From Bacilli bacterium (GTDB lineage Bacteria; Bacillota_I; Bacilli_A; RF39; UBA660), in NCBI GenBank assembly GCA_017553685.1, contig JAFZKH010000008.1:3256-67255 (forward strand): 64,000 bases of DNA, given 5' to 3'. Each line of letters begins with the position of its first letter. The first letter of the stretch is position 1. Shown piece after piece: positions 1 to 48,327 of the stretch. Both the position numbers and the translations under genes were made by a program. A model generated the notes under the pieces. It did no database searches. It saw nothing but the letters and a program-made list of their open reading frames with translations, and was not told the DNA's origin.

Positions 1-2553
1 GCTGGAGATCCAGATGGAACTGAATATAATGTTGGTAGTGTAGCAAGTACTAAGGCAACAATTAATATAGCTGCTACATTATCAGATCCTGCTCCTAATG
101 GTGCTACAGTAACTGGTACTGGTGATATCGCATTAAGTGTTGGTGATAACAGATTACCAGTAGTAGTAACAGCGCATGATGGTACTACAAAGAAAACATA
201 TTATGTACTAGTTAAGAGATTAAATAGTGCTAAGAACCTAGAAACATTAACAATAACTAGTGATCCTGCTGGTACATTAGATCCTGACTTTGATCCAGAA
301 AAAACAACTTATACATATACTACTGATCCAAATGAAACAGAAGTAACTATTAATGCTACTGTTCCAGAAGGAAGTGGTTCTACAATTCTTTCTGGACCTG
401 GAACATATAATCCAGAAACTACTTCAGAAGTAACAATAGTTGTTAAAGCTGAAGATGGTTCTGAAAAACCATATGTAATTAGTCTTGTTAGAGGACTATC
501 TAGAGAAAATACATTAAATAACTTAGGTGTTACAGGTTATGAATTAAATGAAGAATTTAAACCTGGTGATACTGAATATACAGTAACTATTCCTCATAAT
601 GTAGATAGTATTACTATTACAACTGAAAAAGCTGATAGTAGAGAACAAGTTACTGGTGATGGATTAAAAGAAAACTTAACTTATGGTGAAAACCAATATA
701 ATATTACAGTAACTGCTGAAGATCCAACAGTTGAACCAAAAGTTTATACATTAACTGTTACAAGATCTTATAAGACAGATGCTAATTTATTAGATTTAAA
801 AGTAGATGGAGTTACAGTACCTAACTTCCATGCAAATGATCCTGATGGTACTACATATGATTTAGGTAAAGTAAATAGTGATAAAGAACAAATTGAAATT
901 ACTGCTACTTTATCAGATCCAAGTCCAAATGGTGCTACTATAACCGGTGTTGGTATTAAAACATTACAACAAGGTGATAATACATTCCCAGTAGAAGTTA
1001 CAGCACATGATGGTACTACAAAGAAAACATATTATATTAAAGTAAGACAAAAACTTACTGATAATACTTTAACTGGTATCGATATAATTGCTGATACTGA
1101 AGGAACATTAAGTCCTGAATTTGATCCAACTAAGACAGAATATACTTATACATCTGATCCAGATGAAGATTCTGTAACAATAGTTGCACATCCTGCTGAA
1201 GGAGCTAGTGCTGCTGGTGATGGAGAATTTAATCCTCAAGTTGGTGAAGATGCAACAATAGTTGTTACTGCAGAAGATGGTACAATTAATACTTATGTAA
1301 TCCATGTAGTAAGAGGTAAATGTACTGATGCAACATTAGATGAACTTGGTGTTATTGGTTATGATTTAAATGAAGAATTCAAACCAGAAGATGATCATTA
1401 TACTGTTACAGTTCCAGCAGATGTAGATAAAGTAATAATTACTGCACATGCTGCTGATGCTCCAAGAGCTCAAGTAGAAGGAACTGGTGAAAAGACAGTA
1501 GACTTTGGTTCTAATGTATTTACAGTAACAGTTATAGCAGATGATACAAATGTTACTAAACCATATTATGTTACAGTAATTAGAGAATTAAGTTCTAATG
1601 TTAAATTATCAGACTTAAAAGTAAATGATGAAACTGTAGATGGCTTTGATGAGGATAGACCTTCTTATACATATGGACCTGTTTCTCATGATGTTACATC
1701 ATTAGATGTTACAGCTACTCCAAAGGATAGTAATGCTACTGCTAATGTTAGTGGTAATGATAACTTAACTGTTGGTGAAAATGTAATAACTATTGAAGTT
1801 GTTGCACAAAATGGTGAAAAAGGTTACTATACAATAACAGTAACTAGAGAAGGAAATGATGATAATACACTTAGTGGATTAGAAGTTGAAGGATATACAT
1901 TAGATCCTGAATTTGATCCTACAAAGGATGATGATCACTTTACAGTAACTGTTCCATCAGATGTTGATAGTGTAGTAGTTAATGCTACTCCTAATGATGA
2001 AGATGGAGCTACAGTAACAGTTGAAGGCGCAGATAACTTACAACCTGGTGAAAATACAATAACTGTTACAGTAACAGCTGAAAATGGTGATGAAAAAGTT
2101 TATACAATCACTGTTACAAAAGAAGAAGAACCTGAGGAAGATGAAAAGATTACATCTCATATTCGTATAATTGCAGACGGTATGATTAAAGACGTAGTTT
2201 ATAAGACATTACCTCTAGGATTAAAAGATGAATGCGATAATGATAATGATTTATTATTCATCTATGATAGTGAAGATCAAAATGAAATAGATAATAATCA
2301 ACAACTTGGTACAGGAATGATTATTAAATTAATTAAGAATAATAGAGAAAACGATAGAGATATTATCGTAGTTAAAGGTGAAGTAACTGGAGACGGTGAA
2401 ATAAGAATTAACGACGTAGTTAGAGCAGTATCTGCATATGTAGGAGCTGAAGAACTTACAGGTCCTTGGTTTGAAGCATGTGATATTGCTACTGACGGAG
2501 AAATAAGAATTAACGACGTAGTATCAATCGTTAACCTATATGTTGGAGAATAG
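1..2553 (+). CDS. 5'-truncated giant cell-surface protein: >=8 cadherin-like beta-sandwich repeats, C-terminal dockerin-like module
   Basis: Frame 1 is open from the window edge to TAG at 2551-2553 (the track only lists the last 123 aa from an internal Met). Repeated ~85-aa units fit the cadherin-like beta-sandwich pattern (L..L.V.GY.L.P.F.P....YT.TV......V.I.A......A.V.G.G........G.N.I.V.V.AEDG....Y.I.V.R). The C-terminus carries two duplicated segments, VTGDGEIRINDVVRAVSAYVG and IATDGEIRINDVVSIVNLYVGE, typical of a dockerin pair of Ca-binding loops plus helix. Confidence 0.6.
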   Translation, partial: AGDPDGTEYNVGSVASTKATINIAATLSDPAPNGATVTGTGDIALSVGDNRLPVVVTAHDGTTKKTYYVLVKRLNSAKNLETLTITSDPAGTLDPDFDPEKTTYTYTTDPNETEVTINATVPEGSGSTILSGPGTYNPETTSEVTIVVKAEDGSEKPYVISLVRGLSRENTLNNLGVTGYELNEEFKPGDTEYTVTIPHNVDSITITTEKADSREQVTGDGLKENLTYGENQYNITVTAEDPTVEPKVYTLTVTRSYKTDANLLDLKVDGVTVPNFHANDPDGTTYDLGKVNSDKEQIEITATLSDPSPNGATITGVGIKTLQQGDNTFPVEVTAHDGTTKKTYYIKVRQKLTDNTLTGIDIIADTEGTLSPEFDPTKTEYTYTSDPDEDSVTIVAHPAEGASAAGDGEFNPQVGEDATIVVTAEDGTINTYVIHVVRGKCTDATLDELGVIGYDLNEEFKPEDDHYTVTVPADVDKVIITAHAADAPRAQVEGTGEKTVDFGSNVFTVTVIADDTNVTKPYYVTVIRELSSNVKLSDLKVNDETVDGFDEDRPSYTYGPVSHDVTSLDVTATPKDSNATANVSGNDNLTVGENVITIEVVAQNGEKGYYTITVTREGNDDNTLSGLEVEGYTLDPEFDPTKDDDHFTVTVPSDVDSVVVNATPNDEDGATVTVEGADNLQPGENTITVTVTAENGDEKVYTITVTKEEEPEEDEKITSHIRIIADGMIKDVVYKTLPLGLKDECDNDNDLLFIYDSEDQNEIDNNQQLGTGMIIKLIKNNRENDRDIIVVKGEVTGDGEIRINDVVRAVSAYVGAEELTGPWFEACDIATDGEIRINDVVSIVNLYVGE

Positions 2554-2567
2554 AAAGGGAATAGAAA

Positions 2568-4733
2568 ATGAAGTTAAAAAGAATAATTAATAGTTTAATA
2601 ATTACATTCGTAGCATTATTTGCTTGCCTTTCATCAGTATGTGCTGCTGGAACAGCGACTATGTCGCTTTCCGGCAACAGTTCTGTTGTTAGAGGAAATA
2701 ATATTACATTAACAATTACTGTGGATAATATATCCGGTTCTGTTGATGGAAAAGTATCTGGTATTGGTGGATTTATTAATTTTGATCCTCAATATTTAGA
2801 ATATGTAAGTTACTCAGTAGTGGATACAGATAACTGGGGTAAATCAATTAAAACAACTAATATTGCAAATGGTTCACTTGGTAAATTTGCAGCATATGAT
2901 AGTTCAGGTGAAACAAGTAAATCAGGTGGTATTGCAAAAGTTGTATTTAAAGCATTAAAAACTGGTTCTACAACACTATCATTTAGTAGTGCTGAAGCAT
3001 CAGATAAAGGAGCAAATCTTTTAACTGTAACTACTCAAAGTAAAACAATTACAATTAATGATCCTGCTCCAGTATTAGATAGTGATTCTAAATTAAAGAG
3101 TTTAGGAGTAACTGGATATACACTTAGTCCTACATTTAATTCAAATACTAAGGCATATACAACAACTGTTCCAGAAGGAACTGAAAATGTAACTATAACT
3201 GCTCAATGTAATAGTTCAAAAGCAACAGTAGATCCAAATTCAATTGGTCAAAAATCATTAACTGGTGATGCAACAACATTCACTGTTAAATGTACTGCTG
3301 AAAATGGAACAAGTACAAATTATACTGTTACAGTAAATAGAGAAAAACATGTTGAACCAGAACCAGAGCCTACAAAGAGTAGTGATTCAAAATTAAAGAG
3401 TTTAGGAATGTCTGGTTATGATTATAGTCCTAAATTTGATCCTGATACTTTAACTTATTCAATGACTGTTTCTAATGGTATTAAAGGATTATATGTACAA
3501 GCTGTACCTAATGATCCAAAAGCAACAGTAGACATTGAAGGTGATAGTAAATGGGATGTTGGAAAGAATACAGTTAAAATAACAGTTACTGCAGAAGATG
3601 GTAGTAAAACTGTTTATAAAGTTAACGTAACAAGAGAGAGTGAAAAAGTTAAATCAAGCGATAAAAATGTTGATTTCAAAATTTATTCACCTCATACAAT
3701 AGAACCTCAATTTTCAAATGATAAAAATGATTATGAGGTTACAGTACCATATGATATTACAAAATTAGATTTAAGTGTAATACCATATGATTCAAAAACA
3801 AAAGTATCTATTAGTGGTAATGGAAAATTTACTACTGAAGGTGATAATAAAGTAACTATTAAAGTTACTGCAGAAGATGGTTCTGTTAGAACTATTACTC
3901 TTAATGTTAAGAGATCTGAATATAAAGCTAATACTGATTTATTAGATTTAAAAGTTAAAGATTATGAAATGAGTCCTGTATTTAAAGCTAGTACAACTAA
4001 CTATAAAGTTACAGTTCCTCATAAAGTAAGAAAAGTAACAGTATTAGTTAAAGCTCCTGAAGGTGCAACTTATAAAATAACTGGTAATAGGAACTTACAA
4101 GTAGGTAATAACGTAGTATTAGTTAAAGTAACTGATAAGAAAGGATTTACTAAGTATTATCAAATTGATGTTACTAGAAAGAAAGGATTTAATTTCTTTG
4201 GACTTGGTTTAATACCATTCCTAATTATCTTATTCTTATTATTAATATTATTACTACTATTATTATTACTGCTAAGAAGAAGAAAACGTAAAAAAGAAAG
4301 AAGAGCAGCTGCTTTAATAGCAAAAGAATCATCTGATGATGATACTGTTAAACAAGAAGCTCCAGTTCATATTGATTTTAAACCTGAATTTAACTTCAAT
4401 TCTAAAAATGGAACTGATGATGATGTTGTATACTCAAGCGGTTCAATGATTAATGGTATGGATGAAAAGAAACTACTAGATAATCAAGAAACAGTTGTAG
4501 ATGCTAAATATGATATCTATGATGATGTTGTTACTAAAGATGAACTAGTAGATGCATTAAATGAAGGAATAAGAACTAAGAATGTTGATAAACTTCAAAT
4601 GCTACTTGATCAAGAAAACCTTAATCGTAAGAAAAAAAGAATGAAAAGAAAAGCAGAAGAATCAGAATCAAATGATTATGAACCAGAACATGTTGATAAA
4701 TCAGATGATTATGATGATTTTGATATAGAATAG
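2568..4733 (+). CDS. membrane-anchored scaffold-like protein: signal peptide, cohesin-like domain, 5-6 cadherin-like beta-sandwich repeats, TM helix, acidic cytoplasmic tail
   Basis: RBS AAAGGGA. The N-terminus MKLKRIINSLIITFVALFACLSSVCAAG is a signal peptide. Residues ~30-170 (ITLTITVDNISGSVDGKVSGIGGFINFDPQYLEYV...GIAKVVFKALKTGSTTLSF) follow the cohesin type-I pattern (FxYDPxxLE; GxFAxIxFxxxxxGxxxIxF). The repeats LKSLGVTGYTLSPTFN...YTVTVNR are cadherin-like. LIPFLIILFLLLILLLLLLLLL is a TM helix followed by RRRKRKKERR, then a D/E-rich tail. Confidence 0.6.
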   Translation: MKLKRIINSLIITFVALFACLSSVCAAGTATMSLSGNSSVVRGNNITLTITVDNISGSVDGKVSGIGGFINFDPQYLEYVSYSVVDTDNWGKSIKTTNIANGSLGKFAAYDSSGETSKSGGIAKVVFKALKTGSTTLSFSSAEASDKGANLLTVTTQSKTITINDPAPVLDSDSKLKSLGVTGYTLSPTFNSNTKAYTTTVPEGTENVTITAQCNSSKATVDPNSIGQKSLTGDATTFTVKCTAENGTSTNYTVTVNREKHVEPEPEPTKSSDSKLKSLGMSGYDYSPKFDPDTLTYSMTVSNGIKGLYVQAVPNDPKATVDIEGDSKWDVGKNTVKITVTAEDGSKTVYKVNVTRESEKVKSSDKNVDFKIYSPHTIEPQFSNDKNDYEVTVPYDITKLDLSVIPYDSKTKVSISGNGKFTTEGDNKVTIKVTAEDGSVRTITLNVKRSEYKANTDLLDLKVKDYEMSPVFKASTTNYKVTVPHKVRKVTVLVKAPEGATYKITGNRNLQVGNNVVLVKVTDKKGFTKYYQIDVTRKKGFNFFGLGLIPFLIILFLLLILLLLLLLLLRRRKRKKERRAAALIAKESSDDDTVKQEAPVHIDFKPEFNFNSKNGTDDDVVYSSGSMINGMDEKKLLDNQETVVDAKYDIYDDVVTKDELVDALNEGIRTKNVDKLQMLLDQENLNRKKKRMKRKAEESESNDYEPEHVDKSDDYDDFDIE

Positions 4734-4783: not shown

Positions 4784-5206
4784 ATGGGAAAGAAGAAACT
4801 TATAATAATTATATGTGGTGCAGTATTAGCTGTTGCAGCTATAGCTACATTAGTAGTTCTAGGTGTTAAAGGAGTATTTACTAGTAACGAAAAGAAACTT
4901 AATGCTAATTTAACTACTTTAGGAAAACAATTCTATGAAGATTTCTATTATCCAAGCCAAGAAAAGTCTCAAGAAGATGTTAAAGAATTTATTAAAAAAT
5001 TCGAAAAGACCGGTATTAAAGTAAATCTTGAAAACATTGCTAAAGTTAGTAAAGTAGATCAAGAATTAGTTAAGTCTATGGTTAATAGTAAAACTAAAAA
5101 AGAATGTGATAAGACTGCAAGTTATGTAATTATTAAACCAACAAAACCATATGGTAAAACTGATTACACAATTGAAGTAAATCTTGATTGCGGATTTGAA
5201 AAATAA
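4784..5206 (+). CDS. small N-terminally membrane-anchored protein, hypothetical
   Basis: RBS AGGAGGT. A single N-terminal TM segment LIIIICGAVLAVAAIATLVVLGV. No recognisable domain. Confidence 0.4.
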   Translation: MGKKKLIIIICGAVLAVAAIATLVVLGVKGVFTSNEKKLNANLTTLGKQFYEDFYYPSQEKSQEDVKEFIKKFEKTGIKVNLENIAKVSKVDQELVKSMVNSKTKKECDKTASYVIIKPTKPYGKTDYTIEVNLDCGFEK

Positions 5207-5212
5207 TAATAA

Positions 5213-5246
5213 AAAATGATAGGTAAATACCTATCGTTTTTTTTAT
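5213..5246 (+). terminator. rho-independent terminator
   Basis: Stem GATAGGTA / TACCTATC followed by TTTTTTTT. Confidence 0.6.
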
Positions 5247-5277
5247 TTAAATGATATAATTTATAAAGGTGATATAT

Positions 5278-5538
5278 ATGAAATATATTATGATTAGTGC
5301 ATTATGGTGTCCTGCATGTATTATTACTAACTCTGCTATGGATAAAGTAGTAGAAGAAAAACATATTGATGTAGAAAGATTAGATTATGATTTTGATGAT
5401 ATATCTAAATATAATGTAGGAAGAACTTTACCTGAAATAATAGTATATAAAAATGATATAGAAATAGGTCGTATTATAGGAGAGAAAAACTATAAAGAGC
5501 TATTAATGGAGATAGAAAAGTATGAAGAAAATAATTAG
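5278..5538 (+). CDS. thioredoxin-family protein (CPAC active site)
   Basis: RBS AAGGTG 7 nt upstream of an ATG at 5278. WCPAC motif in a ~85-aa Trx-like protein. No signal peptide. Confidence 0.55.
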   Translation: MKYIMISALWCPACIITNSAMDKVVEEKHIDVERLDYDFDDISKYNVGRTLPEIIVYKNDIEIGRIIGEKNYKELLMEIEKYEENN

Positions 5539-6730
5539 ACTATTCATAATAACTTTATTATTATTTATTCCTGCTTTTAAAGGGGTAAAAGCCCTTGATA
5601 TTTACCTATTTTATAGTGATACATGTCCTCATTGTAAGGCAGAAGAAAAGTTCTTAAATTCATACCTTAAATCAAATGAAGATATAGTACTTCATACATA
5701 TGAAGTAACTAATAATAGTGATAATGCTAAACTATTAGAAGTAGTATCTAAAGATATTATGGGAAAGAGTGCTATAGGAGTTCCTTATACTGTTATAGGG
5801 GAAAAAGTTATATCTGGTTATATGGATGATTCAACTACTGGAGAAGAAATTAAATCTTATATAAATATATATAGAAGTCAAGAATTTACTGATAGAGTAG
5901 GAGAATATATTAAAACTGGAAAAATAATTAAAAAAGATGAACCAGTTGAACCTAAGAAAAAAGATAATAAAGTATCATTTAAAGTATTTGGTAAAAAAAT
6001 AACTGTTAATCCTAGAACAGTTTCATTACCACTTATATCAATAGTACTTGGTTTAGTAGATGGTTTTAATCCATGTGCTATGTGGATATTACTTTTCTTA
6101 ATAACAATGTTATTTAATATGAAAGATAGAAAGAAAATGTGGATCTTAGGATTAACATTTATACTTACTTCAGGACTAGTTTATTTGGCATTTATGTTAT
6201 CTTGGTTTAATATAGCATCATTTGTACCTAAACTATCTTTATTAAGATTTATAGTAGCTATTGTGGCTTTAGCAGCAGGTATATTTAATATGAATAATTA
6301 TATTAAATCTTTATCTAAAGATGATGGTTGTGAAGTAGTAGATGATAAGAAAAGAAAAAAGATTATAAATAGAATTATAAAAATTACATCTAGTAAGAAA
6401 TTTATATTTGCTTTACTTGGAATAATGTTATTAGCTGCTACAGTTAATTTAATAGAATTAATGTGTTCTATAGGTATACCATTAATATTTACTCAAATAT
6501 TATCTATGAATGATTTGCATGGTTTTAAATATATGATTTATATGTTTATATATATAGTATTCTTCTTATTAGATGATATATTAATATTTGTTATATCTAT
6601 GAAGACTTTAAAGGTAACAGGTATATCTACTAAGTATACTAAATACTCTCATTTAATTGGAGGAATTATTATGCTTATAATAGGTATTTTAATGCTTTTA
6701 AAACCAGAATTATTAATGTTTAATTTTTAA
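5522..6730 (+). CDS. thiol:disulfide interchange protein: exported thioredoxin domain fused to a CcdA/DsbD-type transmembrane domain
   Basis: N-terminal signal/anchor, then YSDTCPHCKAEEKFL (Trx CxxC). The polytopic C-terminal half has the CcdA/DsbD-beta signature cysteines (FNPCAMW; LMCSIGIP). It overlaps the upstream trx gene, suggesting translational coupling. Confidence 0.6.
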   Translation: MKKIIRLFIITLLLFIPAFKGVKALDIYLFYSDTCPHCKAEEKFLNSYLKSNEDIVLHTYEVTNNSDNAKLLEVVSKDIMGKSAIGVPYTVIGEKVISGYMDDSTTGEEIKSYINIYRSQEFTDRVGEYIKTGKIIKKDEPVEPKKKDNKVSFKVFGKKITVNPRTVSLPLISIVLGLVDGFNPCAMWILLFLITMLFNMKDRKKMWILGLTFILTSGLVYLAFMLSWFNIASFVPKLSLLRFIVAIVALAAGIFNMNNYIKSLSKDDGCEVVDDKKRKKIINRIIKITSSKKFIFALLGIMLLAATVNLIELMCSIGIPLIFTQILSMNDLHGFKYMIYMFIYIVFFLLDDILIFVISMKTLKVTGISTKYTKYSHLIGGIIMLIIGILMLLKPELLMFNF

Positions 6731-15009: not shown

Positions 15010-17679
15010 ATGAAAAATATTAAGGGTAAAAAACTATTATTTACTTTTATTTTATTATTAATGGTTATAATTCCTGTAACTATTACATTTGGAAAATTTG
15101 AATATGCTAGTCCAATACAATTTGATAATTTACAAGGAGCAGCTGCTCAAACTATTACTGGAACATATAGATTTAGTAATGGTAGTGTTGGAGCATATTA
15201 TATATATGGTGCAGATAAGATTCCTGCATTCTGTATTACAAGTAGTGTTTGTAGGGGAGCAGAATCTAAGTTTTGGATGGGTGAAGCTGTTACTGGTACT
15301 GGAACAAATCATCAAAGATTTTATCATACTTATTGTTTACAATCTGGGTTAACTGCAAATGGAAAACCTGATGGAATAAGTAGACCATATTTAACTGCTC
15401 ATGTATATAATGATCACTTTGATAATAATACACTAAAAAATAAAGCTGGAAATTATATAAATGCTAATCAACGTGAATTATTAGAAGATGTACTTGCAAG
15501 TGGTTATCATTATTCTGAAAACCATACTCAAACCGTATATAATTTATCTAATGGAGATCATGTTAAGAGAATATTTGTTAAACAATTAATTGTTTGGGAA
15601 ATAGTTGAAGGTGCTAGAACAAACCTTGATGAAGTTCCTAATGTATATCATGCTAATAACAGTGGTTATTATGCTGTTATTACAAAGAAAACAAACTTAC
15701 ATAATATTTATAAAGATCAATTAGCTGCTGCTAGAGAATATAGAGAAAAGAGACAAACTGGTGCTCCTATATTTGGTAAAGAATATACTATGAGATGGAA
15801 TAATAGTATATCTAAGTATGAAAGTGTTATTAGTGAATCATTAAATGGATTTAGTAATTGTAGTGCTAATAATAATGATGTATCTGTTTCTACTAAAACA
15901 ACTACTACTGGAACAGAAACAATTGTTACATCTACTAAAGCAATTACAACTCCAGTAACTATTACATGTTCTTATGTGGTAGGAGATGGTTCTAGTCAGT
16001 ATACATATTTCACATTTACTAAATATACTCAATTTCAAAATTTAGTATATGGTATTGGTGGAACAACAATTAAAAAATCGTTTACTGTTAGATCTGAGGC
16101 ATCAAATGTTTATATTAATAAATATAATGAATCGGGCCAAAGAATTAATAATGCAGATTTTACATTAACTCTAAAGAGTGATCCATCAATTTCGTTTGCA
16201 TTAACTGGTAATAAAACTACTCAAGTTATTGAGAAGAGTGGATTATATACTTTAAGAGAAACTAATCCTCCTCATGGATATGATAAAATATCAGAAGTTG
16301 AGTTAAATATTGATATTAAGAATGGTACTATTACATCATCTAATTCAGCTATTCAAGTTTTATATGATAGTGCATCTAATACATTCTATATAACTGTAGT
16401 AGATAAAGAAAAATCATTTGAAATAAAGAAAGTTAATGAATCAAATGCTGAAGTAAAAGGTGCAACATTTAAGATTTATAATGGTAATAATTTTAGTAAT
16501 GAAGTTAAGTTTAATAAAGCAAATAACATATTTAATTATGCAGAGAATGGTACAGTAACTAATATAGTAGATAATAATTATTCTACATATTCTATTAGAT
16601 TTTTACCTAAAGGTATATATAGAGTAGAGGAAACTGCTACACCTATGCCATATTTATTACCTACTGATATTAATGATAGAACATTCTATATTAAAGTAGA
16701 AGATGAATATAATGTATTTGATTGTGGTACTGATTCTACATGTAAGAATCCTAAATTAACTGTTAATAGTTCTATAACTATTAAAAATTATGAATCAAGA
16801 ATAGAAATAATTAAGACTGGTACTGGTGGTCTTCCTCTTGGAGGAGTTAAGTTTGTTTTATTAAATGAAGATAAAACTAAATATATTACATCTGATTATT
16901 TGGCAAATGAATATTTTTATAGTACATCAGTAACAGATATAACTAATGCTACAGTATTTATTACTAATACTGATGGTAAGATAATTATTCATAATTTACC
17001 AATGGGTACATATTACTTAAAAGAAATAGAAACAATTGATCCATATGTATTACCTGAGGGTGATGCAGTATATACTAAATTAGTATTAGAAATGAAGAAA
17101 GATGGTTTAAAACTTAATGGTAAATCATCTAAATCTGAAAGTATATCAAATGCTTCTAAAGAGTTTAACTTCTATAAAGTAGATGAAAATGGTAATTATT
17201 TAGCAGGTGGTAAATTTAAGATTCAAAGATTTAATGATGATACTGGTAAGTATGAAGATATAAAATTAGTGTCTGTTGAAAACGATGGTACTTATCAAGC
17301 AAATGCTAATATATTTAAAGAAGATTCTGAAAGTGGAAAAGTTCAATTTACTTTAGCACATGGTATTGCTACATTTGTTGATATGACTCCAGGAACTACT
17401 TATAGAATTCTAGAATTAGAGGCTCCTAAAGGATATGAAGTAGCTAATGTAGATAATAGTGCAATCATTAGATTAGATAGAAATGGTTATGCTAAAGGAT
17501 CTGCAATTATTATTAACCAACTTAAAAAGATTGAAGGATCTACTGCTCAAGCTGAATTAATTATAGAAATTCAAACTGGTAGAAAACTTATTAGATATGG
17601 ATTAATTATTGCAGGTACATTAATATTAATCGCAGGATTAATGGTTACATTAATTTATGTTTCAAAAAAGAGAAAATAG
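15010..17679 (+). CDS. surface adhesin paralog A: signal peptide, putative thioester (TED-like) N-domain, >=3 Cna-B/SpaA-type domains, C-terminal EIQTG + TM + KKRK anchor
   Basis: The signal/anchor is MKNIKGKKLLFTFILLLMVIIPVTITFG. A conserved Cys lies in YHTYCLQSG and a conserved Gln in VKQLIVWEI, reminiscent of Gram-positive thioester domains (inference). Three domains are Cna-B-like (GATFKIYNG...LPKGIYRVEETATPMPY; GGVKFVLLNE...LPMGTYYLKEIETIDPY; GGKFKIQRF...TPGTTYRILELEAPKGY). The C-terminus is ...IEIQTGRKLIRYGLIIAGTLILIAGLMVTLIYVSKKRK. Confidence 0.55.
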   Translation: MKNIKGKKLLFTFILLLMVIIPVTITFGKFEYASPIQFDNLQGAAAQTITGTYRFSNGSVGAYYIYGADKIPAFCITSSVCRGAESKFWMGEAVTGTGTNHQRFYHTYCLQSGLTANGKPDGISRPYLTAHVYNDHFDNNTLKNKAGNYINANQRELLEDVLASGYHYSENHTQTVYNLSNGDHVKRIFVKQLIVWEIVEGARTNLDEVPNVYHANNSGYYAVITKKTNLHNIYKDQLAAAREYREKRQTGAPIFGKEYTMRWNNSISKYESVISESLNGFSNCSANNNDVSVSTKTTTTGTETIVTSTKAITTPVTITCSYVVGDGSSQYTYFTFTKYTQFQNLVYGIGGTTIKKSFTVRSEASNVYINKYNESGQRINNADFTLTLKSDPSISFALTGNKTTQVIEKSGLYTLRETNPPHGYDKISEVELNIDIKNGTITSSNSAIQVLYDSASNTFYITVVDKEKSFEIKKVNESNAEVKGATFKIYNGNNFSNEVKFNKANNIFNYAENGTVTNIVDNNYSTYSIRFLPKGIYRVEETATPMPYLLPTDINDRTFYIKVEDEYNVFDCGTDSTCKNPKLTVNSSITIKNYESRIEIIKTGTGGLPLGGVKFVLLNEDKTKYITSDYLANEYFYSTSVTDITNATVFITNTDGKIIIHNLPMGTYYLKEIETIDPYVLPEGDAVYTKLVLEMKKDGLKLNGKSSKSESISNASKEFNFYKVDENGNYLAGGKFKIQRFNDDTGKYEDIKLVSVENDGTYQANANIFKEDSESGKVQFTLAHGIATFVDMTPGTTYRILELEAPKGYEVANVDNSAIIRLDRNGYAKGSAIIINQLKKIEGSTAQAELIIEIQTGRKLIRYGLIIAGTLILIAGLMVTLIYVSKKRK

Positions 17680-17695
17680 TTTCTCTTTTTTTGTT
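17661..17695 (+). terminator. rho-independent terminator overlapping the stop codon
   Basis: AAAAAGAGAAA tag TTTCTCTTTTTTT. An equivalent structure lies at 24553-24590. Confidence 0.55.
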
Positions 17696-17744
17696 ATATA
17701 TGATATAATAATTGTATATATAATAGTATAGGGAGTGTGTATAT

Positions 17745-20700
17745 ATGGAACAAATAAAAAAGGGTTTTTGGAAAACCATAGATTTTATTTATAAGCATAA
17801 AGTAATTGCTTTCTTTGTTGCTTTTACTTTAGCTACATCATTAATTTTGTATGGCGTATTTGCTACAGATGATGAATATGAAAACAAATTAAAAATAAGA
17901 GATAATAGTGCTGTTATTAAAACTATTGCTGATGCTGGTGCTGAACTTGATGCAGATACAGATACTCATGGTAAAGATGCATCTGCTTCTAATGGAGTAC
18001 TAAGAAACTTTGATAGTATTTCTTATAATGTAGAATATGTTTTAGAACATAAAACAGAAACATTAACTACTCCTATAGAAGGAAGAACAGTTATAGTAGA
18101 TGTTATTATTCCAAAGAATATTAATGCTACATTAACATCTTCTAATAAAAGTGGTGATGGTAGTATAATTGCTAAAACATTAGGAGACAATTATAGCTAT
18201 TTCCATTTTGAAATGCATAATGTACCTACATCTAGTACACTTAATCCATCTGAGTTTGATTTTACTTTAGAAGGTGTTAATACACAAACTGTTGGTGCAA
18301 GCTTTACTCCTATAATTCTTGTTAAAGAGAGTACAGATGCTGATAGTAAATCTATAGATGAATTAACTCCAGATGAAAAAGAAGCGTTTGCTGCTAATCC
18401 AGCTGGTAATGTAACTTGTCCTAGTACAGTTTCAAATTGTTTAACTACAATGACTGGTACATATGATTATAATGTTGAAGTATATCAAGGAACTCCTACT
18501 ACTGATACTGTAAGACAAAAAACTTATCCAATAGGTGTTGCTGTTAAAGTTCCTAGAACTATTGGTGTATATATTCCAAATAGTGTTTCATTTAGTATTA
18601 ATTGGGCTCCAGATGTAGCTGATACAGTTACAGTTCAATATGCTGAAAATTCTATGGAAGCATATAAAGGACCAAATAAACAATATACAATTATGTATGA
18701 TGGAATTACTCAATTACCTGAGTTAGGTAATACTATTACATTTGAAAATAATGTTTTAACAGTTAATGCTTTAAAATATTCAAGTGGAAATGATGATTTT
18801 GTTGGTACTGCTTCATTTGAACTTAAGGTAGCTCGTTCAGAAACTGATAGAGAAAACAGAACATTTACTGTTGCAACTAGTAATTTAACAGTACCTGGTA
18901 CAGATTATTCTAAATTACAAGGTGGAGATATTACTGTTACTGATTACTACGAAAAATTTGTTGGTAGTTTCTTATCACAAGTTGATATATATGCTGGTGA
19001 AGTTTCAAAAGATCCAGGAACTGCAACTCCTTTATTACCAGGTAATGCATATTTAAATTATAATCAAAGATTCAGAGTAGTTGAAACAATTGCTTATGCT
19101 ACTGATGGTAAAGGTGATGACTTATCTGAATTAGATAATTATATTAAAATTGATCCTACTGCTTTCTTAATAACTAAAGAAGATAGTGGTATTGTTAGTG
19201 CTCCAATGGCTAGTTTAAAATATGGCCAAGGTGAGTGGACTTCAGAATACTTTGATTTAACTGGTGTATCTGGATGCCCTACATCATTTGATGGATTAAC
19301 TACAGAAAATATTATGAACTTATATGGTGGACCATGTATAGTTGAAAAAACTGGTGAAAACAGTCCATTTGTATGGAGTTTACAAGATGAAGATACATCT
19401 GATCTTCCAATAATAATTGTTAAAGCGATATTTGGTGATCAAACTTCTGATGATATGAATGCTGATGCATCATTAACAGCTAAAGTATCTTTAGCAGGTA
19501 AAATTAGAAAGAATAATATTAATTTAATTGATCATTCATATCAAATATCTACTTTATCAACAGGATACTTTAAGAATCCAACAACTGGTAATTTAGATTT
19601 ATATTATTTATCAAAGAATATTAATACTAGTGATGTTACTAGTGCTAAGAATCCTAATAACTATGGAAAGAGTAATTATAGTTTTGAAAATAGATTCTTA
19701 ATAGCTAATAATACTAATCCATGTAATGGTGAATCTTTATGTGGAATTTCAGGTGATACTGTTCATGTAATGGGATTCAAAGTAAATAAACCTGAAGTAG
19801 TATCTTACTTCAATAATTATCCAAAGACTTCATTCTATGATTATCCAATTGAATGGAGAATTCAAGTTAGTGCAACTTCTGATATAGATACTATTGAATA
19901 TGATCATGCTGGAATTGCAGTAACTATTCCAAAAACATTAAATTATTTATATGCAGAAATATTAGTAAATAACGGTGATAGTTCTAAGAGAATGGAAAAA
20001 ACACCATCAAGAGTAATTGATGATGATCCAACTTATACAATTTATGTATATGATTTTGAAAGAGATGAAATAACTAACGGAGCTGTTAATACATTATCTA
20101 TATTTACTGATATATTTATGAATACAAAATCAGGAACTCAAGTACAAATTAGTGCTGCTGCTGATATGGATGGATATATAGTAGATAATAGTGATATTCA
20201 TAGAGTTTTAGATAATAGACCATCTATTCCATTTAAGACTACTGAATCTGATGTTATAACTCTATATAACAGTGCATATATAAGTACATTTGGTAATGCT
20301 GCTCCAAGATATGTAGAAAAAGAAGAATCATATACTTATACTATGAAATCATATAATAATTCAAGTGATAGTAGTAATGCAGGATATGCTTATGAAAATG
20401 CTACATTATATTATATGCTTCCATATATAGAAGACTATAACTATAAGTCATATAATAAGAAATTTACAAATTCTACTTATAAAGTAAAAATTAATGATAA
20501 TTTAACTGGTTATACAGCATACTATACAACTGATGCTTCTGCTAATGTAGTTAGTGATGTTAATAATTTAGTTAATTCTGATAATTCAACTAACTGGGTA
20601 GAATGGACTAATCCTTCAGCTGAAGTTGAAGCTACTGCTATTAAGATTGTTAAGAATGAAAACTGGGATATTGATACATACTTTGTTTCAGAAAATGGTG

Positions 20701-21893
20701 TTAATGTAACTGTTACACCAGTTAAGAATGCTCAAGCTGATGCATACTATAATGGATTTATAGTTGCAGTTAATAGACCTGCTGGATTTGCTCCAGAATG
20801 TGAAGAAAGAATGGATGAAGATCCAGAAACACCATGTGATCCAAATGCACAAAGTAGTAGATTATTCTTCTATTCATCTGAATCTTTAGTAGAGGTTTAT
20901 AGTAGACAAATTTCAGGATTTGTATTTGAAGATTATAACTATAGTGATATCTATGAAGTTGGTGAAGACCAAATGAAAGATATAGTAGTAGAATTATATA
21001 AATTAAATAATACTTCATATGATCCTCAAGATGCTGCTAATCCAAATGCATATATTAATTCTGAAGTAGATGAACTTGTTTCAACTACTACTACAGATGG
21101 TAATGGTGCATATACATTTACTGGATTAAATACTGGTAACTATTATGTATTATTTAGATATGATGGAAATAAATATACACCAAGTAATAAATATGCTGGT
21201 GGTGATAATAGTAGACAAGTTAATTCTAAGTCTATAGCTAAGAATCAAGCTGATAATGAAGCGGTTTCAGATATACTTACATTAACTAGTCAAAATGGTT
21301 CTGAAAATAAGAATTATATTAACTTAGGATTAAGAATCAGAAAAGACTTTGCTGTTGAAATTAATAAGTACATAACTAATATTGTTCAAACTTCTAGTCA
21401 AGGAGTTAAGACATATGAATATGAAAAAGCAACTAAAGTTAATATAGATATTAGAAATATTAAAAATACTAAGTTTAGAGTAACTTATAGTTTTGATATA
21501 GTTAATACTAAATACTTCCCTGGTTATATTGGAATAATAGCTGACTTAGTACCAGCTGGTATGACATTTGATGGTTCGTTAGAAGAAAACAAAGACTGGA
21601 CTATTTATGATGGGGTTCTATATTATACTGGACTTCAAGATAAATTATTATTACCAGGAGATAGACAATACTTTAAATTAGTTCTTGATTTAGACACTAA
21701 TACAGGTGGAACATATACTAATATAGTAGCTGCTCAACAACCAATATTAATGGGTGAAAAAACATCTGATATAGACTTTAATTCAATTACATTTGAAGAT
21801 GCTAATCCAGTAGAAACTACTGATCCTAACACTGGTACTCAAACAGGTACTGATACAGGAAATAATACTGGAGAAGGAAATAATGGAGAGTAG
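17745..21893 (+). CDS. large surface protein (1382 aa): N-terminal signal anchor, multiple beta-rich domains, SdrD-B-like (Cna-B) domain and DUF11-like C-terminal domain
   Basis: N-terminal TM IAFFVAFTLATSLILYGVFA. The C-terminal region (FVFEDYNYSDIYEVGEDQMKDIVVELYK...GNGAYTFTGLNTGNYYVLFRYDG) fits the SdrD B-like/prealbumin fold. The terminal segment (RNIKNTKFRVTYSFDIVNT...GMTFDGS) is DUF11-like. No C-terminal anchor is present. Confidence 0.45.
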   Translation: MEQIKKGFWKTIDFIYKHKVIAFFVAFTLATSLILYGVFATDDEYENKLKIRDNSAVIKTIADAGAELDADTDTHGKDASASNGVLRNFDSISYNVEYVLEHKTETLTTPIEGRTVIVDVIIPKNINATLTSSNKSGDGSIIAKTLGDNYSYFHFEMHNVPTSSTLNPSEFDFTLEGVNTQTVGASFTPIILVKESTDADSKSIDELTPDEKEAFAANPAGNVTCPSTVSNCLTTMTGTYDYNVEVYQGTPTTDTVRQKTYPIGVAVKVPRTIGVYIPNSVSFSINWAPDVADTVTVQYAENSMEAYKGPNKQYTIMYDGITQLPELGNTITFENNVLTVNALKYSSGNDDFVGTASFELKVARSETDRENRTFTVATSNLTVPGTDYSKLQGGDITVTDYYEKFVGSFLSQVDIYAGEVSKDPGTATPLLPGNAYLNYNQRFRVVETIAYATDGKGDDLSELDNYIKIDPTAFLITKEDSGIVSAPMASLKYGQGEWTSEYFDLTGVSGCPTSFDGLTTENIMNLYGGPCIVEKTGENSPFVWSLQDEDTSDLPIIIVKAIFGDQTSDDMNADASLTAKVSLAGKIRKNNINLIDHSYQISTLSTGYFKNPTTGNLDLYYLSKNINTSDVTSAKNPNNYGKSNYSFENRFLIANNTNPCNGESLCGISGDTVHVMGFKVNKPEVVSYFNNYPKTSFYDYPIEWRIQVSATSDIDTIEYDHAGIAVTIPKTLNYLYAEILVNNGDSSKRMEKTPSRVIDDDPTYTIYVYDFERDEITNGAVNTLSIFTDIFMNTKSGTQVQISAAADMDGYIVDNSDIHRVLDNRPSIPFKTTESDVITLYNSAYISTFGNAAPRYVEKEESYTYTMKSYNNSSDSSNAGYAYENATLYYMLPYIEDYNYKSYNKKFTNSTYKVKINDNLTGYTAYYTTDASANVVSDVNNLVNSDNSTNWVEWTNPSAEVEATAIKIVKNENWDIDTYFVSENGVNVTVTPVKNAQADAYYNGFIVAVNRPAGFAPECEERMDEDPETPCDPNAQSSRLFFYSSESLVEVYSRQISGFVFEDYNYSDIYEVGEDQMKDIVVELYKLNNTSYDPQDAANPNAYINSEVDELVSTTTTDGNGAYTFTGLNTGNYYVLFRYDGNKYTPSNKYAGGDNSRQVNSKSIAKNQADNEAVSDILTLTSQNGSENKNYINLGLRIRKDFAVEINKYITNIVQTSSQGVKTYEYEKATKVNIDIRNIKNTKFRVTYSFDIVNTKYFPGYIGIIADLVPAGMTFDGSLEENKDWTIYDGVLYYTGLQDKLLLPGDRQYFKLVLDLDTNTGGTYTNIVAAQQPILMGEKTSDIDFNSITFEDANPVETTDPNTGTQTGTDTGNNTGEGNNGE

Positions 21894-21902
21894 GTGAATA
21901 GT

Positions 21903-45957: not shown

Positions 45958-48261
45958 ATGATAAATGTTAAAAAGGAAATTAATGAAGTATTAACAATAT
46001 TATCTAATTTAAATGAAGAAATTCCATTTAAATATAATTCTAGAACAAGAAAAATAGTAGCTGACATTACTACTAAAAGAGAAACTTTTAATATTGACGA
46101 TTTAATTGTTCCAGAAGATGGTCCTTTCGCTTTTAACAAAACATTTAGAGGTAAAATGGATGTTGTAATATCTACTAATAATGGTAGTGAAAAAATAGCA
46201 GAAATTTCAGTAGATAAATGTAACTTAAGTGAAGCAAAAAGAAAATTCTATAGTGAATATCGTGATTATTGTACAGGGGATACTTATCAAGAACCTATTG
46301 TAGATAAGTTACTAAAGGCGGTAACTCCATCTAATAATGGTGCATCACGTATAAAATATTCTTTAAATGAAGATTCTTTAAAAAATATGCTTGCAACTGA
46401 AGATACAAATGGTTCTGTTACTAAGGATCAACAAATGTCATTAGAGAACTTTAATATACAATTAGCAAAAGATAGAGAAAAACAAGCTATTGAAGCAGAT
46501 ACAACTGAAAAGAAAGATTCAAAAGAATTAACTAAAGAACAAAAAGAAGCTTTAGAAAGCTTTTCTTTACAATTATCAAAGAAAAATACAGATACAGAAG
46601 AAGAAAAACCTGTAGAAATAGAAACTGTACCAGGTACTGTATCAAACAACTCAGGTAATTCAGATATTAGATTTGATAATAAAGCAGGTATATTTGTACC
46701 AGTTAAAACTAAAAAGACTTGGGCTGATAGAATTAGTGCAGTCTTAGAAAAGAGTGGCTTTAGAAAAGTTGAAGATAATAGTAATTATTATTGGGGATCA
46801 TTTGATTTAGAAGATAAAACTACTGAAAGTACTAATACAGTAAGTACTGATTCAAAAGATAGTGCATTTGGTGAATCAAGTGAAAATATAACTGGTACTA
46901 TTGGTCCAGCATATGGTGCTGTTAATAGTAGAAATAACACTATTAGTGAAATTAATCAATCTAAAGAAGAAAAAGTTTCTTTAAAAGAAGCTGCTAAACA
47001 ATACTTTGGTTATTTATTTGCAAGAAGTGATAAATTTGGTAAAGTTGAAAAGTTAAATGGTACTTTAACACTAAAAGAAAAAACAAGTAAGTTATTTGAA
47101 TCAACAAAAGAAAAACTATCATATATTTTTGCAAGAAGTGAAAAAGTAAATAATGGTTATACTATTATTGGACCAGGTCCTAAAAAAATAGTTAAAAGAC
47201 CATTAAGAGTTAAACTTAAAGATTCATTAGAGAATGCTAAGGACGGTGTTAAAGAATTCTTTGGATATACCTTTAGTAAGAGTGAAAAAGTAAATAATGG
47301 TTATACTATTATTGGACCAGGTCCTAGAAAAATAGTTAAAAGACCATTAAGAGTTAAACTTAAAGATTCATTAGAGAATGCTAAGGATGGTATTAAAGAT
47401 TTCTTTGGATATACTTTTAGTAAGAGTGAAAAAGTAGATGTAAAACCTGTTATAACTAAAAAGGGAACTTCTACACTAAATAATGGAACTAATAATCCAA
47501 CTGGAACAGGTTTAAATAATGGTGGTACTCCAATTGTAAAACCAGAACCTGCAAAACCAGTTGTTAATGAAGCAGAAGAACTTGTTAAAAAACAATATAC
47601 TTTATTAGAAAAACAATATCAATTAGAAGACTTAAAATTACGTAATAAATTAGGTACATATGAAAGAATGTTTGTTGAAGACGCTAAAGCAGAATGTCTA
47701 GATATTAAAGATAATGAATTTAGACAAATGATAAATGAAAGATGCGTTGATAAACTAGCAATCTTTACTTATTATTGTGATTTAATAGATCTTAAGAGAC
47801 AAATGGCTTCTAAATATATTAATGAATTTAAAGACTATTTTAATACTCTTGGTGAATATGAAAAAATGTTTGTTGAAGATGCTATCGCTGAATATATTTA
47901 TCCAGGTGATAGTGAATATATGCAAATGTTAAGTGAAAGATGTGTTAATAAAGATAGTGTTACTAGATTCTTAAAACAATATAAGAAGTTAGCTGTATTA
48001 TATAAAGAAATATCTGATAGACAAAGAGAATTAACTGATGTAGCTAAAGTATTTGGATTCCATAGAGAATTTAAAGAATTAGATATTAATACTTTAAGAA
48101 AGTTAACTAAACCTCGTAAGAGTGAATTAACTGAAGAAGAGTTAAAGAAGTATAATGCTAGTAAACTTAAAAAAGATGAACTAGTAGAAATATTAGATAG
48201 AACTGATACAGAAAAAGTAAAAAAGTTAGTAAAAGGGGATAATAAAAAAGATGTCAAATAA
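45958..48261 (+). CDS. hypothetical repeat protein (767 aa) with internal 48-aa tandem duplication and C-terminal YE(K/R)MFVEDA modules
   Basis: No signal peptide. The FFGYTFSKSEKV motif occurs 4 times. An exact-ish tandem 144-bp repeat lies at 47137-47424. Two C-terminal modules (LGTYERMFVEDAKAE...NERCVDK; LGEYEKMFVEDAIAE...SERCVNKD) are present. Confidence 0.4.
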   Translation: MINVKKEINEVLTILSNLNEEIPFKYNSRTRKIVADITTKRETFNIDDLIVPEDGPFAFNKTFRGKMDVVISTNNGSEKIAEISVDKCNLSEAKRKFYSEYRDYCTGDTYQEPIVDKLLKAVTPSNNGASRIKYSLNEDSLKNMLATEDTNGSVTKDQQMSLENFNIQLAKDREKQAIEADTTEKKDSKELTKEQKEALESFSLQLSKKNTDTEEEKPVEIETVPGTVSNNSGNSDIRFDNKAGIFVPVKTKKTWADRISAVLEKSGFRKVEDNSNYYWGSFDLEDKTTESTNTVSTDSKDSAFGESSENITGTIGPAYGAVNSRNNTISEINQSKEEKVSLKEAAKQYFGYLFARSDKFGKVEKLNGTLTLKEKTSKLFESTKEKLSYIFARSEKVNNGYTIIGPGPKKIVKRPLRVKLKDSLENAKDGVKEFFGYTFSKSEKVNNGYTIIGPGPRKIVKRPLRVKLKDSLENAKDGIKDFFGYTFSKSEKVDVKPVITKKGTSTLNNGTNNPTGTGLNNGGTPIVKPEPAKPVVNEAEELVKKQYTLLEKQYQLEDLKLRNKLGTYERMFVEDAKAECLDIKDNEFRQMINERCVDKLAIFTYYCDLIDLKRQMASKYINEFKDYFNTLGEYEKMFVEDAIAEYIYPGDSEYMQMLSERCVNKDSVTRFLKQYKKLAVLYKEISDRQRELTDVAKVFGFHREFKELDINTLRKLTKPRKSELTEEELKKYNASKLKKDELVEILDRTDTEKVKKLVKGDNKKDVK
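47137..47424 (+). repeat. tandem direct repeat, 2 x 144 bp (~95% identical) inside the CDS
   Basis: Each unit encodes SEKVNNGYTIIGPGP(K/R)KIVKRPLRVKLKDSLENAKDG(V/I)K(E/D)FFGYTFSK. Confidence 0.75.
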
Positions 48262-48327
48262 GACATCTTTTTTTGTATATTATTGTTATATATGATAGAA
48301 TATATATAAGAATAGAGGTGTGTGTTT

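Follow-up and report, generated by a model that had tools for sequence, protein, structure and literature searches.

A predicted membrane-anchored cohesin and a giant dockerin protein of RF39-like gut Bacilli as probable tiers of a non-enzymatic surface fibre

Work on cohesin-dockerin assembly has mostly concerned the way in which fibre degraders organise their enzymes. In the stretch of DNA analysed here (64,000 nucleotides, called the window below), a gene whose product ends in a dockerin-like duplication is followed directly by a gene for a cohesin-like membrane protein, which raises the question of what such modules hold together at this locus. Modules known from cellulose-degrading machines appear to serve here in the display of long non-enzymatic fibres at the cell surface.

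Translation placed both genes where the initial annotation had put them. ORF1 (1-2553, + strand) is truncated at its 5' end and was read in frame 1 from base 1, with 850 codons and a TAG stop codon at 2551-2553. Eight Cadherin-like beta-sandwich repeats (PF12733) of about 88 aa each occupy 1-2121 (+ strand); the Pfam scan gave E 1.6e-68 in 8 stretches and 227.6 bits against a cut-off of 24.2. All 850 aa of ORF1 align at 74% identity with residues 1002-1850 of a full-length orthologue, L001:4434-9986. This orthologue has 1850 aa and consists of a signal peptide, a cohesin, about 16 Cadherin-like repeats, an X module and a dockerin. ORF1 corresponds to the C-terminal part of such a giant adaptor, which is predicted to be secreted. 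In the orthologues, the N-terminal domain matched cohesins in the PDB (E 7e-6) and PF00963 in 5 of 14 cases; this cohesin is known from the relatives, and the same part of the window's gene sits upstream of the window.

The C-terminus of ORF1 contains two further modules. Residues 708-787 (2122-2361, + strand), delimited with an HMM of 15 orthologues, form a conserved alpha/beta domain of ~80 aa directly before the dockerin, which we call the X module. It adjoins the dockerin in 17 giant proteins and in many cargo proteins. Its AF2 model reached a pLDDT of about 96, and the two-domain model of X module and dockerin a pTM of 0.82. Foldseek found no PDB match for the X module, and no similarity to solved X modules was detectable.

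The dockerin covers residues 788-850 (2362-2550, + strand) in two repeats. The duplicated C-terminal segment described in the initial annotation is real, VTGDGEIRINDVVRAVSAYVG and IATDGEIRINDVVSIVNLYVG being alike in 14 of 21 residues. At the DNA level the repeat is 29 nt long (2392-2420 and 2494-2522) and 97% identical, with a spacing of 102 nt, or 34 codons. The Pfam Dockerin_1 search that the initial annotation had proposed came out negative: the window's dockerin stayed below every threshold tried, with no match to PF00404 even at E <= 10, either full-length or isolated. The full-length orthologue in L001, the closest to the window, scored 15.4 bits, below the cut-off of 22.9, and phmmer searches of the PDB with single sequences gave only non-significant cohesin and dockerin matches (E 0.025-1).

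The identity of the window's dockerin therefore comes from an orthologue profile and structure prediction, not from Pfam. When the C-terminal 143 aa of the window's protein were used as the query for homologues, only 7 fragments were returned, and a profile query also returned mostly fragments; orthologous C-termini were therefore collected from loci upstream of ORF2 homologues. In the resulting alignment A2 (15 members, the window copy and 14 orthologues), PF00404 was matched by 12 of 15 members at E <= 0.01, the best at 5.1e-12. Against the PDB, the profile built from it matched 20 dockerin chains over the whole module (E 1.6e-10 to 6.5e-3). The AF2 model (pLDDT 91.6) has the three-helix dockerin layout, with helices at model residues 103-113, 121-127 and 137-148, and its best 20 Foldseek matches in the PDB were all dockerins (TMt 0.72-0.84, rmsd 1.1-2.5 A). 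On both lines of evidence the claim of a C-terminal dockerin was upheld.

The predicted Ca loops are EVTGDGEIRIND at 2380-2415 in repeat 1 and DIATDGEIRIND at 2482-2517 in repeat 2 (both + strand). The canonical Ca ligands are D or N at loop positions 1, 3, 5, 9 and 12, where the window's dockerin has E-T-D-R-D in loop 1 and D-A-D-R-D in loop 2. Both loops retain positions 5 and 12 and have an acidic residue at position 1. Non-canonical residues, in loop 1 E (position 1) and T (position 3) and in loop 2 A (position 3), could weaken Ca-dependent folding of the window's dockerin; most orthologues outside its clade have the canonical DxNxDG. Within each species the two dockerin repeats are near-identical, and between species they differ, a pattern typical of dual-binding dockerins.

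ORF2 (2568-4733, + strand) encodes a protein of 721 aa with a single cohesin. It begins with a Sec-type signal peptide (residues 1-26, 2568-2645, + strand) ending in VCA|AG, a pattern common to 120 of 120 homologues among the matches listed. A lipoprotein signal was considered and rejected, as the Cys residues of the signal peptide do not match a lipobox and are not conserved. The cohesin lies at about residues 29-165 (2652-3062, + strand) and contains both cohesin-like strings that had been pointed out earlier, FINFDPQYLEYV and GIAKVVFKALKTGSTTLSF. PF00963 was not listed in the Pfam scan of full-length ORF2 and matched the isolated residues 27-174 with 38.2 bits (cut-off 24.1, E 2e-9) over positions 4-139 of its 139. 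The nine-stranded cohesin jelly-roll expected in the initial annotation agrees with the AF2 model, which is all-beta (pLDDT 90.4, pTM 0.83) and whose best 50 Foldseek matches in the PDB were all cohesins (E down to 1.9e-10, TMt up to 0.88), led by 2jh2, 2w1n and 2vo8. The Pfam score and the model together bear out that the N-terminal domain of ORF2 is a cohesin.

Four Cadherin-like repeats follow at residues 172-540 (3081-4187, + strand; Pfam E 3.8e-42 in 4 stretches, 143.1 bits against a cut-off of 24.2), so that the same repeat type, as had been noticed, is present in both proteins. A TM helix (545-569) and the stop-transfer cluster RRRKRKKERR (570-579) lie at 4200-4304 (+ strand), and a hydrophobic segment occupies the position of this helix in 119 of 120 homologues among the matches listed. 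Given its signal peptide and a TM helix flanked by basic residues towards the tail, ORF2 reads as the single-pass membrane protein with a cytoplasmic tail that had been proposed. SLH domains and LPXTG were absent from ORF2 in both the sequence and the Pfam scan. A cohesin together with a cell-attachment device, here the C-terminal TM helix, is what defines an anchoring scaffoldin, and ORF2 is a predicted member of that class.

The two genes are separated by a spacer of 14 nt (2554-2567, + strand) with the ribosome-binding site AAAGGGA, and no terminator was found between them; on the + strand a terminator-like hairpin first appears at 5211-5242. ORF1 and ORF2 are therefore probably co-transcribed on one transcript. 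Downstream, ORF3 (4784-5206, + strand) encodes 140 aa, with an N-terminal TM helix and a domain of ~100 aa that has two conserved Cys. Pfam gave no significant match for it. In L001 a paralogue (29% identity, E 1e-13) immediately precedes the giant gene, and members of the family occur in 5 of 17 loci; ORF3 may be an accessory gene of the cluster.

The adjacency of the two genes extends well beyond the window. In each of the 14 divergent loci that have both genes, the cohesin-TM gene directly follows that of the giant dockerin protein; ORF2 is 33-63% identical among them. The cluster, conserved among uncultured gut Bacilli ("Tenericutes", RF39-like) in no fewer than 14 loci, comprises X-dockerin cargo proteins free of enzyme domains, a giant adaptor with an N-terminal cohesin, and the membrane cohesin anchor. 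The cargo genes are known from relatives; in the nearest of these, L001, identity with the window's two genes is 74-80%. The upstream X-dockerin proteins of the relatives carry DUF285, Listeria-Bacteroides repeat (Flg_new), Big_2 and Cadherin-like modules. The initial annotation had spoken of a cohesin-dockerin pair. Both modules hold up; the pair as such is too small a unit, since the giant orthologues have an N-terminal cohesin of their own and X-dockerin proteins are encoded upstream. That neither partner looks like a glycoside hydrolase is confirmed by Pfam, which finds no catalytic domain in ORF1 or ORF2.

We infer binding between the ORF1 dockerin and the ORF2 cohesin from synteny, the shared operon and a modest co-evolution signal. 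Dockerin divergence tracks that of the ORF2 cohesin when the rest of ORF2 is controlled for (partial Mantel r 0.40, p about 0.005, in 14 related genomes and with a test known to be liberal), and it does not track that of the giant's own cohesin (r 0.11, p 0.22, 14 genomes). Our preferred reading, which we hold to be somewhat better than an even bet, is a non-enzymatic cell-surface fibre, assembled by cohesins and dockerins, of which ORF1 and ORF2 make up two tiers. ORF2 would be exported by Sec and retained in the membrane by its C-terminal helix, with the four Cadherin-like repeats keeping the single cohesin away from the cell. The secreted giant ORF1 protein would insert its C-terminal X-dockerin into this cohesin, and the distal N-terminal cohesin of the giant, which differs from that of ORF2, could recruit the X-dockerin proteins encoded upstream. 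The outcome would be a fibril of roughly 50-100 nm with adhesin-like modules for attachment to the host, to particles or to other cells, rather than an enzyme complex.

The same modules could be wired differently. The giant may polymerise head-to-tail, each dockerin engaging the N-terminal cohesin of a neighbouring copy, or its dockerin may bind another cohesin protein while the ORF2 cohesin directly holds the smaller X-dockerin cargo. The giant orthologues do carry both a cohesin and a dockerin, many loci have a second or third cohesin protein beside the ORF2 homologue, and the cargo dockerins are unlike the giant's dockerin in sequence, so that at least two specificities are likely. We nevertheless consider such a wiring unlikely, because the co-evolution signal points to the cohesin of ORF2 rather than to that of the giant, ORF2 is not followed by a second cohesin protein in the window's clade, and ORF1-ORF2 adjacency is the invariant feature of the cluster. 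Absence of interaction altogether, with the dockerin-like end as a Ca-binding stabiliser or a binder of another ligand, the cohesin-like domain as a generic beta-sandwich or lectin, and the genes adjoining only since both encode Cadherin-like surface proteins, seems quite improbable to us. The folds are predicted with high confidence, and among the best PDB matches of the cohesin (50) and of the dockerin (20) there is nothing but bona fide cohesins and dockerins. The adjacency is strict in 14 loci, the co-evolution signal is present, and concerted evolution of the two dockerin repeats suggests selection on a binding face. In favour of this alternative, the window's dockerin reaches no Pfam threshold, and its Ca ligands are degenerate. 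Peer et al. in 2009 are also said to have described many non-cellulosomal cohesin-like and dockerin-like modules for which a partner was not demonstrated, work that is cited in PMC13487519.

ORF2 could also be the anchoring part of a genuine polysaccharide-degrading complex, similar to a cellulosome or amylosome, whose dockerin enzymes are encoded elsewhere in the genome. The Pfam description of PF12733 suggests carbohydrate binding, which fits such a complex, and single-cohesin proteins with a TM helix are predicted for starch- and fibre-degrading Ruminococcus (bioRxiv 10.64898/2026.02.05.704116). Against it, Pfam found a catalytic domain in 0 of 9 neighbouring X-dockerin proteins (7 loci), the window's other 60 kb have no further dockerin or cohesin, and the hosts are small-genome gut Bacilli that are not known as fibre degraders. 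Fusions of a dockerin with a glycoside hydrolase, by which a cellulosome or amylosome is recognised, were found neither in ORF1 or ORF2 nor in the 9 neighbours or the window. We regard such a complex as very unlikely.

What is new in the system is the anchor's predicted cytoplasmic tail, which is conserved more strongly than any other part of ORF2, is restricted to this family and has no known homologues. The tail (4305-4730, + strand) is acidic, with 38 D/E against 19 K/R in the 135 aa after the basic cluster. It contains motif 1, IDFKPEFNFNSKNGTDDDVVY, at 4371-4433 and motif 2, YDIYDDVVTKDELVDALNEGIRTKNVDKLQMLLDQENLNRKKK, at 4509-4637 (both + strand). Mean pairwise identity is 77% for motif 1 and 63% for motif 2, compared with 34% for the cohesin, which makes the motifs the most conserved of ORF2. 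Among 1.84 billion representatives the tail occurs only in the ORF2 architecture, in 90 clusters, and no homologue was found in Pfam or the PDB. Assignment to SAP/HeH (FANC_SAP, E 0.15, no match in the PDB) was weak and sporadic, as was assignment to Tim44-like proteins (Tim44 in 5 of 27 members, best E 3.4e-4); both were rejected as unsupported.

The likeliest role of the two conserved motifs would be to dock a cytoplasmic partner or to drive oligomerisation of the anchor. A search of the cluster's surroundings for a conserved cytoplasmic partner gene found none, the ORF3-like family alone recurring (5 of 17 loci) besides cohesin, dockerin and Cadherin-like proteins. The transmembrane coupling suggested in the initial annotation is a hypothesis, to which the strong conservation of the tail lends weight. 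In its fullest form, the strictly conserved motifs KPEFNFxSxNxxDDD and TKxE..A..E...KL..LL.Q..LN would dock a partner and couple the fibre mechanically or informationally to the cell interior, as a bacterial counterpart of TMEM132-type cohesin/cadherin adhesion receptors; this we put forward as a long shot. Coupling of this kind could serve positioning, force sensing or regulated assembly, for example. A conserved, family-specific tail offers a testable handle on the linkage between bacterial surface fibres and the cytoplasm.

The window comes from an uncultured, AT-rich gut bacterium, and the setting is a conserved operon of uncultured gut Bacilli with small genomes (RF39-like, formerly 'Tenericutes'), about whose surface biology next to nothing is known. 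One relative (locus L008) is Clostridium sp. CAG:433, a name it has in common with the RF39 family CAG-433 (PMC8035907). Most RF39 are predicted to be thin-walled, and in related orders without sortases a reduced display of surface proteins was inferred (PMC10868615). A wall-less host as the cause of the TM anchor was considered and could not be established. A membrane-anchored cohesin system would be another route to an elaborate surface. Here the plug-and-socket logic would serve, in two tiers (anchor, adaptor, cargo), non-enzymatic adhesin-like fibres, and the module pairs may be of use as new orthogonal cohesin-dockerin parts.

Among known systems, the eukaryotic TMEM132/coherin proteins resemble ORF2 in having an extracellular cohesin, Ig-like/cadherin-type repeats, one TM helix and a cytoplasmic tail, whose short conserved motifs were proposed to link to the cytoskeleton (PMC6030884). 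They differ in being eukaryotic and in having no known dockerin partner; no sequence relation between their tails and that of ORF2 was detected, and the likeness is architectural only. The statement in the initial annotation that scaffoldins anchor by SLH domains or sortase motifs is outdated, as anchoring scaffoldins with a C-terminal TM helix are already recognised as a 'nonSLH-anchoring' class (PMC11557425), and such proteins are predicted for R. difficilis, R. sp. HUN007 and other Ruminococcus (bioRxiv 10.64898/2026.02.05.704116). Like ORF2, these cohesin proteins use a C-terminal TM helix to stay in the membrane. Unlike the present cluster, they occur in systems of Ruminococcus (Clostridia) whose glycoside hydrolases or amylases are fused to dockerins, and the passages of the two sources that were covered report neither a conserved cytoplasmic domain of ~140 aa nor a Cadherin-like stalk, both of which ORF2 has.

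The best structural matches of the ORF2 cohesin were modules of Clostridium perfringens glycoside hydrolases and toxins (2jh2, 2w1n, 2vo8 and 2o4e; TMt 0.87-0.88, rmsd 1.7-2.4 A). Those pairs are likewise non-cellulosomal, work outside cellulose degradation and have an accessory module before the dockerin; they differ in linking secreted enzymes to each other, with no membrane anchor and no giant repeat adaptor. The Foldseek matches also included 5n5p and 5lxv, which we take to be structures related to the type III system of Ruminococcus flavefaciens ScaE. ScaE is a single-cohesin anchor (type III) that holds the X-dockerins of ScaB and of CttA, a non-catalytic adhesin, and is joined covalently to peptidoglycan by sortase. 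The likeness lies in a single-cohesin anchor that holds large proteins by a C-terminal X module and dockerin, and in the tiers of anchor, adaptor and cargo. The present cluster differs from the ScaE system in that no enzymes were seen in it, no similarity to solved X modules was detected for its X module, its spacers are Cadherin-like, and its anchor uses a TM helix with a conserved cytoplasmic tail in place of the sortase linkage.

ORF1 (positions 1-2553, +) is truncated at its 5' end: counted from base 1, frame 1 has 850 codons ahead of its TAG stop at 2551-2553. ORF2 (2568-4733, +) encodes 721 amino acids and starts 14 nt past ORF1, the spacer having a ribosome-binding site, AAAGGGA. The first terminator-like hairpin of the + strand is located at 5211-5242, downstream of the small gene ORF3. 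Given this spacer and hairpin, ORF1, ORF2 and ORF3 look like one transcription unit, and ORF1 and ORF2 probably have an operon in common. ORF3 (4784-5206, +) encodes 140 aa and has a TM helix at its N-terminus; two Cys residues are conserved in its C-terminal domain (...C...YP..PYGK..Y.I...LDC.F). A paralogue lies directly upstream of the giant gene at 3766-4290 of L001, the closest complete related locus, so that the family, found in 5 of 17 loci, brackets the cluster.

In Pfam scans, ORF1 has eight and ORF2 four Cadherin-like PF12733 repeats, and neither showed a catalytic domain. ORF2 has a Sec-type signal peptide and a hydrophobic helix (residues 545-569), followed by RRRKRKKERR and a net-acidic tail. 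By the positive-inside rule, this would place the N-terminal part outside the cell and the tail in the cytoplasm. An HMM scan of the window found no dockerin or X module (the domain preceding the dockerin) besides ORF1 and no cohesin besides ORF2.

A Pfam scan of full-length ORF2 did not list a cohesin. Residues 27-174 alone matched PF00963 over the whole profile at 38.2 bits (cut-off 24.1, E 2e-9). For most ORF2 homologues the precomputed Pfam annotation gives PF12733 only. Because of both omissions, sequence-based censuses probably under-count ORF2-type cohesins. An AF2 model of residues 25-182, built on an alignment of 37 family members, was all-beta (pLDDT 90.4, pTM 0.83), and its best 50 Foldseek PDB matches were all cohesins. 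The closest in structure were the non-cellulosomal cohesins 2jh2, 2w1n and 2vo8 of Clostridium perfringens (TMt 0.87-0.88, rmsd about 2 A). From the profile match and the model, we consider the identity of this N-domain as a cohesin settled.

The dockerin of ORF1 was recognized through its relatives. In the window, two 21-residue C-terminal segments have 14 residues in common, and a 29-nt stretch recurs at 2392-2420 and 2494-2522 with a single mismatch (97% identical, spacing 34 codons). The Pfam Dockerin_1 check on this C-terminus failed at all thresholds tried, and the module alone gave only non-significant dockerin matches in the PDB. Relatives supplied the decisive evidence. ORF2 homologues were located in genome contigs and the gene directly upstream of each was read. 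Its product was 1600-2900 aa in 14 full-length loci; in L017 and L019, truncated by the contig end, only its C-terminal end was available. All 16 upstream proteins end in an obvious dockerin, e.g. GDVNGDGNVKINDAMKISNHL, present twice in L012. When 15 C-termini (the window copy and 14 orthologues) were aligned, 12 matched PF00404 individually (best E 5.1e-12), and their joint profile matched solved dockerins over the full module (E 1.6e-10 to 6.5e-3). The AF2 model of the last 150 residues of ORF1 (pLDDT 91.6, pTM 0.82) shows a small alpha/beta module and then the three-helix dockerin layout. Its best 20 Foldseek matches were all dockerins (probability 0.99-1.0, TMt 0.72-0.84, rmsd 1.1-2.5 A), with E-values of 0.013 and above, modest because the domain is small. 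Homology and predicted fold thus support a divergent dockerin that lies below the curated sequence threshold and has predicted Ca loops. We call it divergent because the Ca loops of the window's clade are unusual: loop 1 has E at position 1 and T at position 3, and loop 2 has A at position 3, with positions 5 and 12 kept. The conserved X module (ORF1 residues 708-787) is always found together with this type of dockerin and had no Foldseek match in the PDB; the module order is similar to that of X-dockerins in type II/III systems.

L001 shows 80% identity to ORF2 and 74% to ORF1, and its full ORF1-type protein is about 1850 aa. The domain after the signal peptide of this giant scored 22.3 bits with PF00963, just below the cut-off. 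Among 14 orthologues this N-terminal domain matched PF00963 in five (best E 9.9e-8), and its profile matched solved cohesins (E 7.4e-6). By these profiles, the giant begins, past the signal peptide, with a cohesin of its own.

HMMs from our own alignments were run on all fetched loci. The recurring cluster consists, in order, of at least one large X-dockerin protein, the giant with the layout cohesin-(Cadherin-like)n-X-dockerin and the protein of the ORF2 type, cohesin-(Cadherin-like)n-TM-tail; many lineages have another cohesin protein after these. The upstream X-dockerin proteins carry DUF285, Listeria-Bacteroides repeats, Big_2 and Cadherin-like modules, and no enzyme domain was found in those checked with Pfam. 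A second protein with a cohesin of the ORF2 type (400-610 aa, mostly without detectable TM helix or tail) is encoded directly 3' of the anchor in L005, L006, L010, L012, L013, L014, L025, L027 and L037; it is absent from the window's clade. Small proteins with cohesin and dockerin together, encoded in L005, L040 and L059, look like adaptors.

We infer that the ORF1 dockerin binds the ORF2 cohesin from the probable operon and from several features of the relatives. The giant and ORF2-type genes are adjacent in 14/14 divergent loci holding both (ORF2 identity 33-63%). Among the folded parts of ORF2, the cohesin evolves fastest (mean pairwise identity 34% vs 50% for the repeats). The dockerin helices are species-specific, and the two repeats are near-identical inside each protein and very different between species, a sign that the two binding faces evolve in concert (gene conversion). 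With the rest of ORF2 controlled, dockerin and ORF2-cohesin distances correlated in a partial Mantel test, which is liberal (r 0.40, p about 0.005; 14 mutually related genomes). Dockerin distances did not correlate with those of the giant's own cohesin in the same 14 genomes (r 0.11, p 0.22). These distances are no more than suggestive of co-evolution.

Two tail motifs are the most conserved parts of ORF2: IDFKPEFNFxSKNGTDDDVVY (77% mean pairwise identity) and YDxYDDVVTKDELxDAxNEGxxTKNxDKLxMLLxQExLNRKK (63%). Against 1.84 billion representative proteins, the tail profile hit only 90 clusters. The tail was C-terminal in all matches long enough for judging, and an N-terminal cohesin was detectable in 36 of the 46 matches of at least 550 aa. 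Neither Pfam nor the PDB held a credible relative, and no conserved cytoplasmic partner gene was found in the neighbourhood of the fetched loci. The conservation of the tail argues for a specific intracellular interaction.

Other features of the window were also noted. At 5269-6730 (+), the gene of an 89-aa thioredoxin-like protein (CPAC) runs into the start of the next one, whose 402-aa product has a thioredoxin-like CPHC motif at the N-terminus and a polytopic membrane domain. Every Pfam score was under the cut-off; the close relatives L001-L003 show synteny of both genes with the cluster, and the two proteins may have a role in extracytoplasmic disulfide formation. SpaA prealbumin-like and SdrD_B domains occur in three large surface-type proteins (889, 1382 and 892 aa; 15010-24572, +). 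The C-termini of the first and third are near-identical, ...EIQTGRKLIRYGLIIAGTL..LMVTLIYVSKKRK, with the hydrophobic helix and basic tail of a sortase sorting signal but IQTG in place of LPXTG. As in ORF2, the TM helix may be the only anchor of these pilin- or MSCRAMM-like proteins. Two adjacent proteins without signal peptide (767 and 619 aa; 45958-50181, +) have lysine-rich C-termini and no Pfam match at E <= 1e-5. A HerA-like helicase (57650-59179), a phage-type integrase (60300-61400, -) and a weak MutH-like nuclease (62983-63831, -) may mark the border of a defence island or integrated element close to the window's 3' end.

The window has a G+C content of 27%. MAGs of the relatives are labelled uncultured Bacilli, Firmicutes, Tenericutes or Clostridium sp. 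CAG:433; CAG-433 is a GTDB family within order RF39 (PMC8035907). RF39 and its neighbours are gut lineages with small genomes and thin or missing walls, some orders being without sortases (PMC10868615).

The cohesin-dockerin observation and the domain calls of the initial annotation were confirmed by sequence, Pfam, orthologue profiles and AF2/Foldseek. Its proposal of non-cellulosomal display or adhesion is the best-supported reading; the binding step in it is inferential. Its claim that membrane anchoring is new is outdated: a 2024 genomic survey gives TM-helix anchoring of cohesin proteins as one category (PMC11557425), and a preprint predicts such proteins in several Ruminococcus species (bioRxiv 10.64898/2026.02.05.704116). 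Literature searches returned no account of this cluster, its tail, or cohesin-dockerin systems of RF39-like Bacilli. Cohesins and dockerins outside cellulosomes, for the most part on proteins that are not catalytic, go back to Peer et al. 2009, as referred to in PMC13487519 and PMC10066038. Beside these, three features appear undescribed: the conserved adhesin operon of this lineage with its two tiers, the giant adaptor that starts with a cohesin and ends in an X-dockerin, and the family-specific cytoplasmic domain of the ORF2-type anchor.
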